Assembly (NCBI GenBank): GCA_963674595.2
Contig: CAXXFV010000012.1
Span: forward strand, 1-11,475
From: a bacterium
GTDB lineage: Bacteria; Zhuqueibacterota; Zhuqueibacteria; Residuimicrobiales; Krinioviventaceae
Direction: 5' to 3'
DNA: 11,475 nucleotides
The notes beneath the pieces were generated by a model. That model was given only the letters and a program-made list of their open reading frames with translations. It did not search any database and was not told where the DNA came from. The position numbers were made by a program, and so were the translations under genes. This document shows, one piece after another, positions 1-11,475 of this stretch (the stretch's first letter is position 1; each line of letters starts with the position of its first letter).

Positions 1-25
1 AATCAAATAAAAATGGAATTTTCAA

Positions 26-913
26 ATGAAATCGATCAAGATGAAAAACATATTGTTACTGGTTTTTGTTTTTTGCATGGTATCCGCTTGTGGACGTAAA
101 GCATCAAATTTTACCGTCTGGCAGTTACCTTTGCATACAGATTGGGTTGGTAACTCTTATGTGTTTCTTATGGACAATGGGCAAGTTGTAGTGATGGATG
201 GAGGCCTTAGGGATGAAGCTCCTTATTTAAAGGGATTTCTCGCAGCTCTGGGCAATGAGGTGGAAGCCTGGTTTATCAGTCATCCGCACCATGATCACAT
301 GGGGGCATTTAATGAGATTCTGATGGATCCGGGAGATATCCGGATCAAAACAGTCTATCATTCGGAACTTCCGGAATGGTACTATCGCAAATACGATGAC
401 CATTTTGACAGCCTCACCAGCGTTTATTACCATAACCTGAATAGTTCGGATATACAAGTTGTAAATTATACAGAACCTGGTGCCGTGATCAAGATTGATC
501 AGACTAATTTCAAGATTCTAAGCACGGTTGATACAACGATTACTTTTAACATCTATAACAATTCATCTATGGTCATTAAGGTATGGGATGACAAAAAATC
601 CATACTGTTCCTGGGCGACCTGGCAAAGGAAGGTGGAAACCTGTTCCTGAAAGGCTCTTTTACGGATGATCTGGATTGTGACTATGTGCAAATGGCACAT
701 CATGGCCAAAAAGGCGTAAGTAAAGAGTTTTACCGAAGCTTTAAATTCAGAGCCTGTTTATGGCCGACACCACTATGGTTGTATGATAATGATCGTGGTG
801 AAGGATTCAACACAGCTAATTTTAAAACAGTTGAAATCAGAGACCTTGTGGATTCTCTCGGCATAACGGAACAATATTTTCAGTTTAATGGGCTTGTCAA
901 GATCACGGATTAA
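26..913 (+). CDS. Metallo-beta-lactamase-fold hydrolase (ComEC/Rec2 C-terminal-like), predicted lipoprotein
   Basis: Motifs VVMDGG, SHPHHDH (HxHxDH), NNSS, LFLGD and MAHHG, as in ComEC-type MBL domains. Hydrophobic N-terminus ending in a VSAC lipobox. Alternative start at ATG 41 (MKNILL...). Confidence 0.85.
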   Translation: MKSIKMKNILLLVFVFCMVSACGRKASNFTVWQLPLHTDWVGNSYVFLMDNGQVVVMDGGLRDEAPYLKGFLAALGNEVEAWFISHPHHDHMGAFNEILMDPGDIRIKTVYHSELPEWYYRKYDDHFDSLTSVYYHNLNSSDIQVVNYTEPGAVIKIDQTNFKILSTVDTTITFNIYNNSSMVIKVWDDKKSILFLGDLAKEGGNLFLKGSFTDDLDCDYVQMAHHGQKGVSKEFYRSFKFRACLWPTPLWLYDNDRGEGFNTANFKTVEIRDLVDSLGITEQYFQFNGLVKITD

Positions 914-2155: not shown

Positions 2156-2689
2156 CCCTTTCTTTTTGTTTAAACTTATCTTTGCAGCTCGTACTTGGGT
2201 TTAAGAATTGCTATGTTAATTGCGGAATAGAGAACAGTATTATTTCCTGCAAAATAACACAAAATCAAACGTAATAGTCGATTCTTCTCAATTACAATTA
2301 TTGATTTTTTAATATTTTGTAAGAATATATGAATCCGATAGTTCCTTCAAAGGCCTTTCTTAATTAAATCGTATAAAATAATCCATCCCTGGATTCAAGT
2401 ACTTTTTACTAATTTAAAAGCCGGAATTATCTTGGACACACCATGTGGAATAAGCCCTCAAAAAGACGTATATCTATTGTTATAGCATAAACCATTCGGT
2501 TATCAATGAAAACGTATTTCATCAATTGATCCGATGTTTTGTATAAAATCGCCCGCTGATTAAAGCAAGGATTGGTATTTTAAGAAACTGGTTTAGGCAA
2601 TTGAACCATGTTTAACAGATAACATTAGCCGACAAAAGATGGTGAAACTAGACTCTGATTACTATTCGATCAACTGTTATAATCCGCAA

Positions 2690-2866
2690 TTAAAAAAGTT
2701 TTTTTAATTTACTCCGAATGATTGTTAACTGATGATAGGTGCAAATGTTGTAATCCATGTCCGAATAAAGTTTCAATTTTGTACACAAGCTGAAACTGAT
2801 CAACTCTAACGTCATTAAATCATGCTCAATAGATTCAATAATTTCATTACGTTGCGCGGAATTCAT
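2690..2866 (-). CDS. Small hypothetical protein, 58 aa (MNSAQRNEIIESIEHDLMTLELISFSLCTKLKLYSDMDYNICTYHQLTIIRSKLKKLF), not in the ORF track
   Basis: Hand-translated open frame from ATG 2866 to TAA 2690 in AT-rich DNA. Purine-rich GAAAGGG 7 nt upstream of the ATG and a sigma70-like promoter upstream. Confidence 0.55.
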   Translation of the reverse strand: MNSAQRNEIIESIEHDLMTLELISFSLCTKLKLYSDMDYNICTYHQLTIIRSKLKKLF

Positions 2867-2911
2867 GATCCAACCCTTTCATATTATTCCAGGAAAATTT
2901 GACTGCTTACT

Positions 2912-2940
2912 ATTGTACAATTTGTATGCCACTATTTAAA
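2912..2940 (-). promoter_or_regulatory. Putative sigma70 promoter of the 58-aa ORF
   Basis: Minus strand reads TTTAAA (2940-2935), 17 nt, TACAAT (2917-2912). The -10 lies in the perfect palindrome ATTGTACAAT (2912-2921). Confidence 0.4.
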
Positions 2941-3001
2941 GGCTGGTATTCTTAAAAAAACCGAATAATTTTATGCTTGGATACGGGAACTTAATTAATA
3001 C

Positions 3002-3030
3002 TTGGATATTATATAATTATCTGTTATAAT
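3002..3030 (+). promoter_or_regulatory. Putative sigma70 promoter with extended -10 for the DUF2238 gene and downstream run
   Basis: TTGGAT (3002-3007), 17 nt, TATAAT (3025-3030), preceded by TGn (TGTTATAAT). Confidence 0.55.
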
Positions 3031-3144
3031 TTACTAAATTTAGTGACATGTATAATTATGGATTTTTTAGCAAGTCGTAACGGGTCATCCGGGATGGATG
3101 GAGATAGGTGTGTAACAAGTTGTAATTTTTTTAAAAGGAATTAT

Positions 3145-5506: not shown

Positions 5507-6274
5507 ATGGTTCCATATACGTTAACACCTGCGGCCGGTAAAAGACTGATTGCCAAAGCCGTTGTCGAACTTGCCTCAATAAAATCTGCGTTACAATCCG
5601 GGACGATTGTCGTTATTGCCGGAACAACAAACGGTTACGTTGCTCAGGAACTTTTACAGCAGCTTTCATCGCCTGAAGACTTGATCACACATCATTTTTT
5701 TCGCGGTATTGTTTTACCTCCAAACTATAAAACCAAAGAGTCCGGAAGACTGACAGACGAGTCTCTATTCCCGGGTGATGTTGTTATTGAAAAGGGTGTA
5801 TGGCAAAAGGGCAAAACAATTTTTGACACGGTTGATGATTTGAAAAAAGGCGATCTTATTCTCAAGGGCGCCAACTGTATTAACATGAATACCAATAAAG
5901 CCGGTATATTGATCGGTCACCCAAAAGGAGGGACGATTGTCGCTGCTTTACAGGCCGTTGTCGGCAGACGCGTTGAACTGCTTCTGCCGGTGGGATTGGA
6001 AAAACGCGTACACGACGATATTGATGTTCTTGCCGAACGATTAAATGCTGCCGGTTCCAAAGGACCGCGTTTGCTGCCTGTCAGTGGAAAAATAATATCC
6101 GAAATTCAGGCCGTCAACATATTGTCAGGGGCACATGCTCATCTCGTTGCCGCCGGAGGTGTATGCGGGGCAGAAGGGGCTGTGTGGCTTGGCATTGACG
6201 GGGAGGAAGAGGCTGTTGAAAAAGCAAAAAATATCCTGGATACTGTTTCCGAAGAGCCTCCGTTTTTAATTTAG
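5507..6274 (+). CDS. Hypothetical protein, possibly NagB/RpiA/CoA-transferase-like fold
   Basis: 255-aa soluble Gly-rich protein with KRLIAKAV, IAGTTN, LKGAN, GGTI, PVGLEK and AAGGVCGAEG motifs; SD AAGGA. The fold is inferred from motif order only. Confidence 0.7.
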   Translation: MVPYTLTPAAGKRLIAKAVVELASIKSALQSGTIVVIAGTTNGYVAQELLQQLSSPEDLITHHFFRGIVLPPNYKTKESGRLTDESLFPGDVVIEKGVWQKGKTIFDTVDDLKKGDLILKGANCINMNTNKAGILIGHPKGGTIVAALQAVVGRRVELLLPVGLEKRVHDDIDVLAERLNAAGSKGPRLLPVSGKIISEIQAVNILSGAHAHLVAAGGVCGAEGAVWLGIDGEEEAVEKAKNILDTVSEEPPFLI

Positions 6275-8074: not shown

Positions 8075-8428
8075 ATGAAATTTATCCTTCTGGTCATTCT
8101 CAAAAGTTTTTTCTGGGTGTTTATTATATATTTGACCAGCTATGCTTATGAATCGTTTACTTTAAAGAATTTGTTAATTTATAATTTTACATGGAAAAAA
8201 AATCCCATTCGTGCACAAGGCGCTGCTGTGTTTAATGCATTTATCATTTTTTTTCCGACACATTTGATAAATTTGATTATCAGTATTTCAAAAACAGAAA
8301 ACACGCCTGCCGGGTATTGGTATGTGATCTGGTTTATCATTGTTGCTTTTTTAACGCATTTGTTTAAAAAACTCTATCTCAAATATACAGCCATAGATCC
8401 AAATAAATCCTATCATGATTTCAGTTAA
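8075..8428 (+). CDS. Hypothetical small membrane protein (about 3 TM)
   Basis: 117-aa ORF 12 nt after the hydrolase stop, SD-like AAGG, three hydrophobic segments. Confidence 0.6.
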   Translation: MKFILLVILKSFFWVFIIYLTSYAYESFTLKNLLIYNFTWKKNPIRAQGAAVFNAFIIFFPTHLINLIISISKTENTPAGYWYVIWFIIVAFLTHLFKKLYLKYTAIDPNKSYHDFS

Positions 8429-8436
8429 CAATAAGA

Positions 8437-11319
8437 TCAGGCAATGCCGGTAAAGTCATAGCTCAGCTTTTTTTGAAATCCGCTGATTTGTGAAAATATT
8501 TTTTTCAACATATGCTGTTCTATTTGTGTCAGTCTTTTGGGATTGATGAAATTGTCCGGTATTTTATTTTCCTCCAAATCCTGCACCTGGTGCTGAAACC
8601 GCAGCATCATTAAATAGTTATAACACTCTACCATTTCATCATGTAATGATTTTGTGATAATATTTTTTTCATAAAGTTTTTCCAGGCGCTGCAGGGTATT
8701 GCGTTCGGATATTTGATGTCGCAGCGTATAAATGCGGGCAAAATCAACAACCGGCATGAGAGCAAATTTAATGTCAAATGCCTGCTGATGTTCCCCGGAT
8801 GATTTTTTAATGCTTCCCGTAAATGTGATCGGCGGTTTGACCAAAAGAGAGTTCTTTGCCAGATGGTTGAAAAAAGCCGCTTTGTCCTGTGCGATTTGTT
8901 GTACATACAAATTAAGGTCCTGTACAAGGGTCAAATCACCGTAAAGATGACGAAAATCGAAAAAGATGTTGATGTCCACCAAATCCTGGGGTTCGGCTTC
9001 ATTGATCCAATGATGAAAATGCTTTTTCCATTCACTCAAACTGACGCACCACTTTGGATTTTTAGCCATAACATCCCCGTTACAAAACCGATAACCGGCC
9101 TGGTCCAATAATCCGTTAACAATTTCCGCCAGTTTAAGAAAATAATTCTGAACATTTTTCTCCGTATCTTCATAGATCAAAACATTATCCTGGTCTGTCA
9201 CAAGGGTTTGTTCTTCCCGGCCCTGGCTTCCCAGCACCATAAAAGCAAAACGCACCGGCGGTTCACCCATTTCCTGCAAAGCAAATTTAAGAAATTTGTT
9301 CGCAACCGAATCTCCAATAGAACTGATAATACGCGTTACATTGGGCGCAAGAAAACCACTTTCAACCAGATATTTTACCATTTGCGGCAGTGTTTTGCAT
9401 CGTGTTATAATTTCTTCAATTGACTCGGCCCGATTAATTTCATGAACCAGTAATCCCGCAGAATATTGTGAAAGCTGAATAATCTCCTTGTCTGAAATAA
9501 TCTTGTTGATATTTCCATGTACATCAGCCAATGGCAAATGCCGGATAAATCGTTCCTGCATTAAAATTAAAGCCTCAAAAACCAGTGCATTTTCAGATAA
9601 AGAAATGACCGGAGCGGTCATTATTTCGTAAACAGGGTGTGATAATGTTTTTTCATCACACATGACCCGTTTCCACAAATCTTCCGCCGTGATAATGCCG
9701 ATTGTTTCACCCGAATCGGTCACAATCAGGGCGGCGTTTTGGTTTTGTTGCTTTAAATTTTTTGCCGCTGTTTTTATCGGTGTATTCATTGGAATACAGA
9801 GACATTTTTGCGCAAAATGTTTTACAGGCTGGTTCAAGTATACCAGTGATGTTTGCAGTTCAATAATAATTTCTTCACGGGCTTGTTCGGATTTTTTCTG
9901 TTCAGAAATATCTTCAATAATACCATCAATAAATATTTCTTTTTTATCATCACTTTTAATAACAATAGCGGAAATCGATACAATCGAGTTTGTTCCGTTT
10001 TGACGTTTTAGCTGAATAATACGTTTGTTGGCAGAACCCTCATTTAACAGGTGATCCATAAAATTCTGGGCTTCATCTTTATCCCTGAAAAAATCAGTAA
10101 TTGTAAAATTTTCAAAAACTGTGTTATCCATCCCAAATATTTTTTGTGCAGCCTGGTTTACCTCAATAAATTTAGGATTCTTTTCAACCTGAATACGAAA
10201 AACGCCGATATTGATATTGTCCGTCAACATTTGAAATTTTAATTTACTCTCTCCCAGCTCTTCCCTGATTTTTTTTAAACCGCCCACATCTTTAATAATC
10301 AGAATGAATCCGTTCTTGCCAAACAATTGAATTTGTGATATCGAAATTAAAGCATTTATTTTAGTCTTGTTTTTATGAAGCAAATTTACTTCGATTTGAT
10401 CCGGTAACGCATCAGATTGCAGAATTTCAATAAAATTTGTGTTCTTTATATTTTCCGTATCAAACAAATCATTTAAATTTAACCTGGTAAGCTCTTTTTC
10501 TGAAAATCCCAATATATTTTGAATAATTTGATTAGCATAAATAATTTTAAAATCCATGATCATAAGCGTGCCTTCGGTTGAGGCTTCTACCAGGGACTTG
10601 TATTTTTCCCTGGAATCAGCAAGCTCTTTTTCAGCCAGTTGTTTTTTTTGTTCAATTTGAAAAGTCTGTCTTGCTATGTAAAATAATATCAAAGCAAGCA
10701 TAAATATAATTGCCACAGAAATGTTGATCAACCGGCGGGTAATTCGGCCAATTTCATGCCGAACGTCTTCGATATAAATACCGGTCCCTATGACCCATTG
10801 CCATGGTGCAAATTCACGTACATAAGACAACTTGGGAACAATACGTAAAGAATCGTCTTTCCATTGCCAATAATAATCAACATATCCTGCGCCATTACTT
10901 TTAACTGTTTTTACAAACTCTACAAAAAGTTTCTTTCCGTGAGAATCCGTAAAATCAGACAAATCTTCTCCGTCAAGGTCGCTTCGATAGGGATGAACGA
11001 TCATACGTGGCTGCATGTCGGTTATCCAAAAGTAGTCTTTGTTTTCATCTCCGTATCGTAATGAACTGATATTCGAGATTGCTTCCTGCTGAGCTTCGGC
11101 TAATGTTAACTCACCTGCGGAAACTTTTTGATGATAACTGTCTAATAAATTCCATGTAGAGTTTGTCAACTCTCGAATCATTTCACGTTTTCGATCCAAC
11201 AAATTTTTTCTGGAGGAGGGGATGATTATAAAAAAAATGGCAATTATAAAAAGTAAAATAGTTAAAAGTGTCGGAAGGATTATATTAACAAAAAAAGATC
11301 TTACAAACGAGGTTTTCAT
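8437..11319 (-). CDS. Membrane sensor with DUF294 nucleotidyltransferase output: TM-sCache_2-TM-PAS-PAS-CBS-CBS-DUF294-DUF294_C
   Basis: TM at aa ~10-33 and ~197-216. sCache_2 motifs LRYG..YFW..MIVHP..D..GK.LF..PKLSYV..F.PW.WVIGTG. Two PAS domains (YANQ..LGFS..KDV; VNQAA..IFG..EDIS). CBS pair (GIITAEDL, IMTAPV, IRHLP). NTase signature GSQGREEQTLVTDQDN (nt 9231-9184), then GY..C.G.VMA.NPKW, FFDFR and DIK..L.P.VDFAR. Confidence 0.9.
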   Translation of the reverse strand: MKTSFVRSFFVNIILPTLLTILLFIIAIFFIIIPSSRKNLLDRKREMIRELTNSTWNLLDSYHQKVSAGELTLAEAQQEAISNISSLRYGDENKDYFWITDMQPRMIVHPYRSDLDGEDLSDFTDSHGKKLFVEFVKTVKSNGAGYVDYYWQWKDDSLRIVPKLSYVREFAPWQWVIGTGIYIEDVRHEIGRITRRLINISVAIIFMLALILFYIARQTFQIEQKKQLAEKELADSREKYKSLVEASTEGTLMIMDFKIIYANQIIQNILGFSEKELTRLNLNDLFDTENIKNTNFIEILQSDALPDQIEVNLLHKNKTKINALISISQIQLFGKNGFILIIKDVGGLKKIREELGESKLKFQMLTDNINIGVFRIQVEKNPKFIEVNQAAQKIFGMDNTVFENFTITDFFRDKDEAQNFMDHLLNEGSANKRIIQLKRQNGTNSIVSISAIVIKSDDKKEIFIDGIIEDISEQKKSEQAREEIIIELQTSLVYLNQPVKHFAQKCLCIPMNTPIKTAAKNLKQQNQNAALIVTDSGETIGIITAEDLWKRVMCDEKTLSHPVYEIMTAPVISLSENALVFEALILMQERFIRHLPLADVHGNINKIISDKEIIQLSQYSAGLLVHEINRAESIEEIITRCKTLPQMVKYLVESGFLAPNVTRIISSIGDSVANKFLKFALQEMGEPPVRFAFMVLGSQGREEQTLVTDQDNVLIYEDTEKNVQNYFLKLAEIVNGLLDQAGYRFCNGDVMAKNPKWCVSLSEWKKHFHHWINEAEPQDLVDINIFFDFRHLYGDLTLVQDLNLYVQQIAQDKAAFFNHLAKNSLLVKPPITFTGSIKKSSGEHQQAFDIKFALMPVVDFARIYTLRHQISERNTLQRLEKLYEKNIITKSLHDEMVECYNYLMMLRFQHQVQDLEENKIPDNFINPKRLTQIEQHMLKKIFSQISGFQKKLSYDFTGIA

Positions 11320-11475
11320 GGTTTGCTCTTTTTAAAATTGCTTTATCGTAAAATAGATTTTTATTAAAAACAGCGTTATTTAGAAAATTCAAGGTCTCAA
11401 AAAAAAGTTATTTCTGCTTTGGAAATTATTTTTTTAATTTACCGGCAATCCACAACAAAATTAAAGCACCAATGA

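Follow-up and report, generated by a model that had tools for sequence, protein, structure and literature searches.

A predicted carboxylate-responsive membrane receptor with a DUF294 nucleotidyltransferase output in a member of the Zhuqueibacterota

What might a bacterium sense with a transmembrane Cache receptor whose output is a nucleotidyltransferase (NTase) domain of the DUF294 family, and on what might such an enzyme act? The question is raised by a gene on contig CAXXFV010000012.1 of assembly GCA_963674595.2, a genome bin from the Zhuqueibacterota (6.6 Mb in 37 contigs; completeness 97.6%, contamination 5.06%). The window analyzed here is the whole of this 11,475-bp contig (C12), and the receptor open reading frame (ORF) occupies 960 codons of its minus strand, running from position 11319 down to 8437; a preliminary description drawn from the sequence alone had placed it at these coordinates without giving a strand. 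The domain layout, the conservation of catalytic and pocket residues, and the conserved gene neighborhood in relatives are direct observations. From them we hypothesize, at what we judge to be even chances, that the protein is a carboxylate-gated one-component receptor of the membrane whose NTase would act as "writer" in a switch that controls uptake by reversible nucleotidylation.

Pfam matches and hydropathy give the receptor the architecture TM-sCache_2-TM-PAS-PAS-CBS-CBS-DUF294-DUF294_C (TM, transmembrane segment), in agreement with the sensor-kinase-like input half and the CBS-CBS-NTase-DUF294_C output half of the preliminary description. Its parts are as follows.

8437..11319, minus strand: full ORF of 960 residues plus stop codon (P0001), from the ORF list and its translation
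11221..11298, minus strand: TM segment 1, residues ~8-33 (hydropathy window 4-41; edges read from the sequence)
10741..11196, minus strand: extracytoplasmic sCache_2 domain, residues 42-193 (Pfam PF17200, E 3.4e-43, 147.7 bits against a cut-off of 25)
10672..10734, minus strand: TM segment 2, residues ~196-216 (hydropathy window 193-222)
10285..10605, minus strand: first PAS domain, residues 239-345 (PF00989, E 1.4e-07; TIGR00229 at 235-355)
9895..10239, minus strand: second PAS domain, residues 361-475 (PAS_8 at 361-415, PAS_9 at 383-473, PAS_4 at 379-475)
9472..9828, minus strand: CBS pair, residues ~498-616 (PF00571 in two stretches, the best at 563-616; 55.6 bits against a cut-off of 24)
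8986..9393, minus strand: DUF294 NTase core of the pol-beta type, residues 643-778 (PF03445, E 7.8e-46, 155.8 bits against a cut-off of 21)
8452..8877, minus strand: helical DUF294_C domain of the KNTase_C/HEPN clan, residues 815-956 (PF10335, E 3.5e-39, 134.4 bits against a cut-off of 22.5)

Because the only two strongly hydrophobic stretches of the receptor (Kyte-Doolittle windows above 1.6) bracket the Cache domain, we place this domain on the outside and everything from residue ~220 onward in the cytoplasm. The CBS region also matches CBS proteins in the PDB, and the DUF294 span was recovered identically by a whole-genome family search. No HisKA, HATPase, GGDEF/EAL or methyl-accepting chemotaxis protein (MCP) output family matches the receptor in Pfam at E <= 0.1, as the preliminary description had read for the kinase, GGDEF and MCP domains, and there is no match to the cNMP_binding domain of the classical COG2905 layout. 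Sensor-kinase and chemoreceptor models of NCBIfam match the Cache/PAS part only, far under their cut-offs, the best of them being the monocarboxylate sensor kinase MctS.

The joining of these halves is not peculiar to this contig. A search of a collection of 5.8 billion proteins returned 1080 matches, and the figures for homologues given here and below use the best 120 of these 1080. PF17200 and PF03445 are both present in all 120, which are mostly 950-1000 residues long; ten of ~1190-1230 residues carry an added PHP domain and a few of ~862 residues have one PAS domain. Single contigs from runs X1, X3 and X6, which belong to three studies, span positions 8300 to 11472 or 11475 unbroken, with 0 (X1, which may be the source of the window), 28 (X3) and 68 differences plus one gap (X6) from the window. 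The X3 (18.5 kb) and X6 (16.4 kb) contigs extend beyond window position 11475 and carry the gene at 98-99% identity. Among the sequencing runs listed as containing the sequence, none was an RNA run. An assembly chimera, which the preliminary description had named as a possible flaw, was rejected on the strength of these spanning contigs and of full-length homologues with both Cache and DUF294. When the NTase part alone was searched, 4062 cluster representatives (50% identity) matched at E <= 0.001 and 1354 at E <= 1e-30; 18 of its best 150 representatives are at least 1030 residues long, and all 12 of those sampled are PHP-Cache-PAS-CBS-DUF294 fusions. The architecture is common in databases, where the preliminary description had allowed that it might already be present, yet it is uncharacterized: our literature search turned up neither a study of a Cache-DUF294 protein nor biochemical work on any DUF294 protein.

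The input of the receptor can be predicted from its sensor domain. The best solved relatives of its Cache domain are Adeh_3718 (4K08, crystallized with acetate; E 2.9e-38) and PscD (5G4Y/5G4Z; E 1.6e-32). According to the accessible text of the PscD study, propionate is bound with Y90, H103, Y143 and K156 hydrogen-bonded to its carboxylate, W92 and W145 stacked against that group and F126 as the back wall, and the reported ligands are glycolate, acetate, propionate and pyruvate (PMC5062169). We transferred these contacts to the receptor through an alignment with solved relatives, and all seven are kept as identical residues (Y90 to Y96, W92 to W98, H103 to H109, F126 to F132, Y143 to Y149, W145 to W151 and K156 to K163).

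10831..11034, minus strand: the seven predicted carboxylate contacts Y96, W98, H109, F132, Y149, W151 and K163, mapped from PscD

Each of the seven is identical in at least 97% of the homologues, and no other part of the receptor is as well conserved as the Cache domain, whose mean top-residue frequency is 0.72 versus 0.52-0.67 in the other domains. Given this identity and conservation of the PscD contacts, the signal is likely a C2/C3 monocarboxylate, a ligand class that adds to the preliminary description. PscD of P. syringae, McpP of P. putida and Adeh_3718 of A. dehalogenans share the sensor fold and the TM-Cache-TM topology, but their output is MCP signaling, whereas the receptor, with its predicted ligand, ends in a nucleotidyltransferase. 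The sensor kinase CrbS/MxtR, which is fused to an SSF domain and stands over acs and actP in Vibrio and Pseudomonas, is likewise devoted to the assimilation of acetate and short-chain carboxylates; it works through a two-component phosphorelay with transcriptional output, while the receptor has neither kinase nor receiver and a different output chemistry.

The output half retains the residues expected of an active enzyme. It satisfies the pol-beta pattern G-[SG]-x(9-13)-D-x-D plus a candidate third carboxylate, at the following positions.

9187..9231, minus strand: catalytic motif G697-S698-x-G700-R701-x-E703 ... D709-Q710-D711, from the homologue alignment
8956..8958, minus strand: D788 in an invariant F-F-D-F-R, a candidate third catalytic carboxylate by position (present in 120/120)

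G697, S698, R701, E703, D709, Q710, D711 and D788 are invariant across the 120 homologues and G700 is kept in 119, and the catalytic motif is also invariant in the 22 sequences of a second alignment (A2). The intact motif of the preliminary description (G697, S698, D709, D711) therefore stands, and its two aspartates, whose loss among orthologues would have spoken against an enzyme, never vary. From this conservation we infer that the DUF294 domain is a catalytically competent nucleotidyltransferase. GlnD/GlnE and DrrA/SidM share with it the pol-beta core G-[SG]...D-x-D followed by a helical KNTase_C-clan domain, as far as the available portion of PMC3710099 describes them; the receptor differs from GlnD/GlnE in having no HD, second NTase or ACT domains and in being membrane bound with an extracytoplasmic sensor. 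A profile alignment (hhalign) of the NTase with E. coli GlnE runs co-linearly over 221 columns with the G..D.D motifs aligned (E 0.022), compared with 35 columns (E 0.6) for a control alignment with the CCA enzyme. A PDB profile search gave three non-significant matches, the sole nucleotidyltransferase among them being DrrA (E 0.84). PDB sequence searches yielded no solved DUF294 structure, the single-sequence search giving CBS matches only, and the NTase part had no usable match in the ESM Atlas.

The genes that accompany the receptor in its relatives link it to carboxylate uptake. A scan of genome contigs returned 53 loci, and we analyzed the 32 in which the match covers the NTase, leaving out L016 (a 2.6-kb contig) and 20 others that match the Cache/PAS part only; neighborhoods rest on our own ORF calling, clustering, Pfam and NCBIfam matches, and tblastn. 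The scan loci belong to KSB1, Chloroflexota, Actinomycetota, Armatimonadota and Bacteroidota. An SSF symporter is encoded on the same strand within ~3.5 kb of the receptor in 25 of the 32, or in 25 of 26 once loci with less than 3 kb of upstream sequence are set aside, the exception being L009. Thirteen loci have a VC_2705-type symporter with a DUF4212 subunit and 12 an ActP/MctC-like symporter with a DUF485 subunit; nine actinobacterial loci add a GPR1/FUN34/YaaH (SatP-type) gene, and nine loci add a porin-like gene of ~410 residues.

A phosphoesterase gene lies directly 5' of the receptor on the same strand in 26 of the 32 loci. In 14 of them it encodes a 248-residue calcineurin-like phosphoesterase (Metallophos) and in 12 a PHP protein, which in L005 is fused with the receptor into an ORF of 1245 residues; PHP fusions account for 10 of the 120 homologues. 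The six loci with neither family comprise two from KSB1, three in which the gene lies at or within ~600 bp of the contig start, and L027. A single scan of metagenomes returned 27 loci, of which 15 were analyzed; the gene directly upstream encodes PHP or Metallophos in 12 of these, and the remaining three start inside the receptor gene. The best models for the PHP partner are 3',5'-bisphosphate nucleotidase and the RNase RNM/AM type, below their cut-offs, and its nearest PDB entries are 3E0F, 2YB1 and 7UG9 (a 5'-3' exoribonuclease). The symporter link and the phosphoesterase partner, each conserved in most relatives, both go beyond the preliminary description.

Some relatives from the window's phylum have a further hydrolase gene nearby, encoding an AP_endonuc_2 TIM barrel. 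It is convergent to the receptor 3' end at L003:8419-9234, L055:12918-13748 (L055/L083) and L087:934-1752, and also at L076:7933-8769 in a distant member of the phylum (47% identity, other gene order). In the present genome the corresponding gene, L056:9684-10478 on contig C18, is divergent and adjoins the symporter cluster. Five homologous proteins keep H59, H95/H99, E141, D179, H182, H204/H206, D207, D213, H215 and E244, an order of residues that we take to resemble the one in which endonuclease IV has its nine metal ligands. Among solved structures the uncharacterized MJ1311 (3WQO, E 2.3e-24) is the closest relative, followed at a distance by endonuclease IV itself (E 1.9e-5), and the model of the cobamide phosphodiesterase CbiR gives 42-55 bits against a cut-off of 105. 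This TIM barrel may be a fourth type of phosphodiesterase partner.

Two features of the DUF4212 genes at these loci also deserve mention. In KSB1 and Bacteroidales the subunit has 234-250 residues (for example, L056:10717-11421, P0121, and L019:5733-6476, P0122), including an added N-terminal TM helix and a familyless segment of ~140 residues that is periplasmic by predicted topology; the proteobacterial genes (~260 bp) are without this segment. A sigma-70-like promoter block is conserved 5' of DUF4212 at L056:10560-10680 and L087:1840-1910, with equivalents in L003 and L055. The spacer of the promoter upstream of KSB1 DUF4212 genes contains the palindrome TTGAATNNNATTCAA (of the type TTGAAT-N3-ATTCAA), which hints at a DNA-binding regulator acting on the symporter operon. 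The window shows no enrichment of the palindrome (3.6 matches with 2 mismatches expected, 3 present), and there is no sign of regulation common to the symporter operon and the receptor.

The soluble members of COG2905 provide a further view of the same output. All four sampled representatives of ~635 residues have the cNMP_binding layout, which confirms as a real relative the soluble cNMP-CBS-DUF294 form named in the preliminary description. Among NCBI-annotated plasmid records, the gene order is DUF4212 - SSF - DUF294 - hypothetical - 3'-5' exonuclease in Ruegeria, acs - DUF4212 - SSF - DUF294 - hypothetical - response regulator - exonuclease in Paracoccus and exonuclease - DUF294 in Hymenobacter, so that the exonuclease accompanies soluble DUF294 at all three and DUF294 directly follows DUF4212-SSF at two. 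In two genomes of the window's phylum, too, a soluble CBS-DUF294 gene and the gene of a DnaQ-like exonuclease lie in convergent orientation. The receptor is 30-35% identical to the plasmid-borne proteins over 472 residues and shares the CBS-DUF294-DUF294_C output of PP_0354, Pflu5625 and PA3232-PA3235, each of which lies beside an RNase T-like exonuclease. Both groups are found with DUF4212/DUF485 and SSF symporters and a hydrolytic partner. They differ in input, which is cytoplasmic cNMP binding in the soluble proteins and TM-sCache_2-TM-PAS-PAS in the receptor, and in the partner, which is a DEDD exonuclease in the former and PHP or Metallophos in relatives of the latter, with none beside the present copy.

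The soluble proteins are already tied to acetate and pyruvate metabolism in Pseudomonas, so the family has some functional context. According to the available parts of the respective sources, Pflu5625, PP_0354/PP_0353 and PA3232-PA3235 belong to the acetate regulon of CrbS/R (MxtR/ErdR) or are induced by propionate (PMC5715377, PMC9765439, bioRxiv 10.64898/2026.09.07.749794), and in P. putida deletion of the exonuclease gene pp_0353 impairs growth on pyruvate, as does deletion of actP-I (PMC9927547). The Pseudomonas genes are thus driven by CrbS/R, while the receptor carries its own built-in sensor. The accessible text of Price et al. describes a DUF4212 and SSF transporter that cells need in order to grow on D-alanine or lactate and that is cofit with the adjoining COG2905 gene, and speculates that expression of the symporter needs COG2905 (bioRxiv 10.1101/072470). 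A riboswitch candidate with no known ligand is described 5' of TIGR03647 (DUF4212) genes in the portion of PMC6429828 available. None of the available portions of the Pseudomonas and COG2905 literature reports an activity or a substrate (PMC5715377, PMC9765439, PMC9927547, bioRxiv 10.1101/072470, bioRxiv 10.64898/2026.09.07.749794).

We propose the following model. The periplasm-facing sCache_2 domain would bind a C2/C3 monocarboxylate (acetate, glycolate, propionate or pyruvate), and the signal would pass through TM2, the two PAS domains and the CBS pair to set the activity of the DUF294 NTase, with the PAS and CBS domains probably contributing redox or metabolite and adenine-nucleotide inputs. 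The NTase would write a reversible nucleotidyl mark, to be removed in most relatives by the fused or adjacent PHP protein or by the metallophosphoesterase, and in the soluble relatives by the DnaQ-like 3'-5' exonuclease. This switch would adjust the uptake carried out by a VC_2705-type or ActP-type Na+/monocarboxylate symporter, and its target, by the logic of GlnD (NTase plus phosphohydrolase), would be a protein that belongs to the uptake system or regulates it. The elements that we infer are the binding of the ligand, the direction in which control runs, the relation of writer to eraser and the target. Writer and eraser are paired in the model because three or four unrelated hydrolase folds hold the same position beside, or fused to, one NTase. 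The mark would be inhibitory, since in the P. putida data, as far as the source is accessible, loss of the eraser mimics loss of the transporter and loss of the writer is silent.

As to the target within this model, a protein comes first at a little under even chances, an RNA 3' end or small (oligo)nucleotide follows at about one chance in three, and anything else makes up the remaining fifth or so. In GlnD, a phosphohydrolase of a nucleotide type is able to remove protein-bound nucleoside monophosphate (NMP), and its combination of writer and phosphohydrolase eraser resembles the proposed pair. Protein nucleotidylation is favored because of this precedent and because the weak co-linear alignments point to enzymes that NMPylate proteins (GlnE, DrrA), while an RNA or oligonucleotide product stays a strong rival because the eraser families are nucleases.

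Several observations weigh against the model. The likeness to GlnE and GlnD is statistically weak: the hhalign probability is 2%, NCBIfam PRK14109 scores 15.9 bits against a cut-off of 625, and Pfam GlnD_UR_UTase reaches E 0.041 and 14.3 bits against a cut-off of 21. The kinship with GlnD/GlnE drawn in the preliminary description holds for the motif and the co-linear alignment and falls short of a significant family-model match; a remote relation is likely, with a similarity that is marginal. The eraser families (DEDD exonuclease, RNase AM/pAp-phosphatase-like PHP) are known mainly from nucleic-acid and nucleotide substrates, and the clade nearest to the present receptor (L003, L055, L087) has neither PHP nor Metallophos. 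In this genome no partner adjoins the receptor: contig C12 has no symporter or phosphoesterase, the DUF4212 / VC_2705-type symporter / porin-like cluster sits on contig C18, and a search of the genome for a dedicated PHP or Metallophos protein found only a generic Metallophos in a Roadblock/GTPase operon and a PHP fragment. The receptor is also patchy in its phylum: of 81 genomes sampled, 10 were found to have it, counting the present one, and it was found in none of four from its own family. Finally, the genetic phenotypes of the soluble relatives are mild, in that, within the accessible text of the sources, deletion of the NTase gene pp_0354 causes no growth defect on pyruvate (PMC9927547) and deletion of pflu5625 has a negligible effect on growth on acetate (PMC5715377).

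The alternative that survives best, which we hold to be possible and put at something under one chance in three, is that the NTase extends or joins nucleotides, by adding a 3' tail to an RNA (for instance, the leader of the symporter mRNA) or by making a linear or cyclic (oligo)nucleotide signal, and that the partner degrades the product. Carboxylate sensing would then control symporter expression post-transcriptionally, a corollary to which we attach the same tentative weight. All partner families are nuclease or nucleotide-phosphodiesterase folds (PHP, Metallophos, 3'-5' exonuclease), as this account would have it, and both the speculation of Price et al. that COG2905 is needed for symporter expression (bioRxiv 10.1101/072470) and the ligandless riboswitch candidate 5' of TIGR03647 genes (PMC6429828) fit with it, so far as those sources are accessible. 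The sole weak homology signals nevertheless lead to protein NMPylators and not to the CCA enzyme, and the GlnD precedent provides a nucleotide-type phosphohydrolase that acts on NMPylated protein. We found no Rfam motif, and no known leader RNA, 5' of the small-subunit genes at 11 loci (L056, L003, L055, L019, L013, L017, L034, L057, L058, L059 and the window), although the TIGR03647 motif is possibly outside the Rfam copy used. At the gathering threshold, eight sources gave a tmRNA in L034 only, with chance-level matches at L056 10300-11500 and none at the three plasmid loci. Given the uncertain place of the TIGR03647 motif in this copy, the null result has no bearing on the riboswitch idea.

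It is unlikely, in our estimate, that the gene is an orphan here, uncoupled from carboxylate uptake and serving another process while its product still senses a small carboxylate, or recently acquired on a contig possibly foreign to the bin. The 11.5-kb contig has no partner genes, no receptor was found in the four same-family genomes, and a neighboring ORF of 255 residues was found in none of 12 relatives of the same order. The G+C content of the contig, at 0.361, compares with 0.352-0.415 in the other 36 contigs (one of them lower), the bin has its measure of contamination, and the receptor is only 66-69% identical to its KSB1 relatives versus 87-90% for the C18 symporter. The matching DUF4212 / VC_2705-type symporter / porin cluster is, however, present in the same genome, all ligand-pocket and catalytic residues are kept, and the nearest relatives L003, L055 and L087 have the receptor 1-1.6 kb from the corresponding symporter, to which the C18 symporter shows the identity just given.

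A bolder variant, which we consider a little more doubtful again, is that DUF294 enzymes make a diffusible nucleotide-derived second messenger and that the receptor is a ligand-gated synthase reporting extracellular acetate-type carboxylates. The exonuclease, PHP, Metallophos and possibly the endonuclease-IV-like TIM barrel would be its phosphodiesterases, and the receiver might be a leader RNA, such as the TIGR03647 riboswitch candidate, or a different factor belonging to the symporter operon; if true, this would be a new second-messenger pathway across many phyla. We give almost no credence to the idea that the NTase is a non-catalytic nucleotide-binding module that signals by binding and not by transfer, for although the accessible literature shows no activity for any DUF294 protein, the G-S / D-x-D / D set is invariant in 120/120 homologues and a hydrolytic partner coupled or fused in most relatives would make little sense if no product were formed.

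No substrate is known for the large DUF294/COG2905 family, and the carboxylate importers beside the relatives of the receptor suggest a testable job for it. The Cache-fused form is useful in this respect in that its input (acetate-type carboxylates) and its context (Na+/monocarboxylate uptake) are both predictable, which makes possible activity assays with a defined stimulus and puts the writer and eraser within reach of simple genetics. If the uptake-switch model is true, nucleotidylation would join the outputs of bacterial transmembrane receptors and would explain the tuning of short-chain fatty acid uptake in many anaerobic and sediment bacteria.

The receptor gene starts 156 bp from the contig end, and two further features occupy this stretch. 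Promoter and terminator scans around the gene gave matches at chance level only.

11320..11425, minus strand: intergenic region of 106 bp 5' of the receptor, with no recognized element on reading the sequence
11426..11475, minus strand: 3' end of an upstream gene truncated by the contig end, whose translated last 15 residues are hydrophobic and membrane-like

The rest of the contig encodes a metallo-beta-lactamase-fold protein, two WbsX glycosyltransferase pieces, a DUF2238 protein, an SMR pump, a SnoaL-like protein, a CDF transporter, an alpha/beta hydrolase and three proteins without a family. The 255-residue ORF (window 5507-6274, plus strand) matches no Pfam or NCBIfam family and found no match in any of the 12 same-order relatives; a paralogue with 37% identity lies on contig C17. 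A stretch of ~890 bp at 2156-3042 has no ORF of at least 80 residues and is the lowest-GC part of the contig (~0.30). Two adjacent ORFs of the minus strand match separate parts of the WbsX model, the one at 932-1612 its C-terminal part (142-349) and the one at 1667-2155 its N-terminal part (10-109); they are probably one gene, broken either by a sequencing error or by a frameshift or stop codon.

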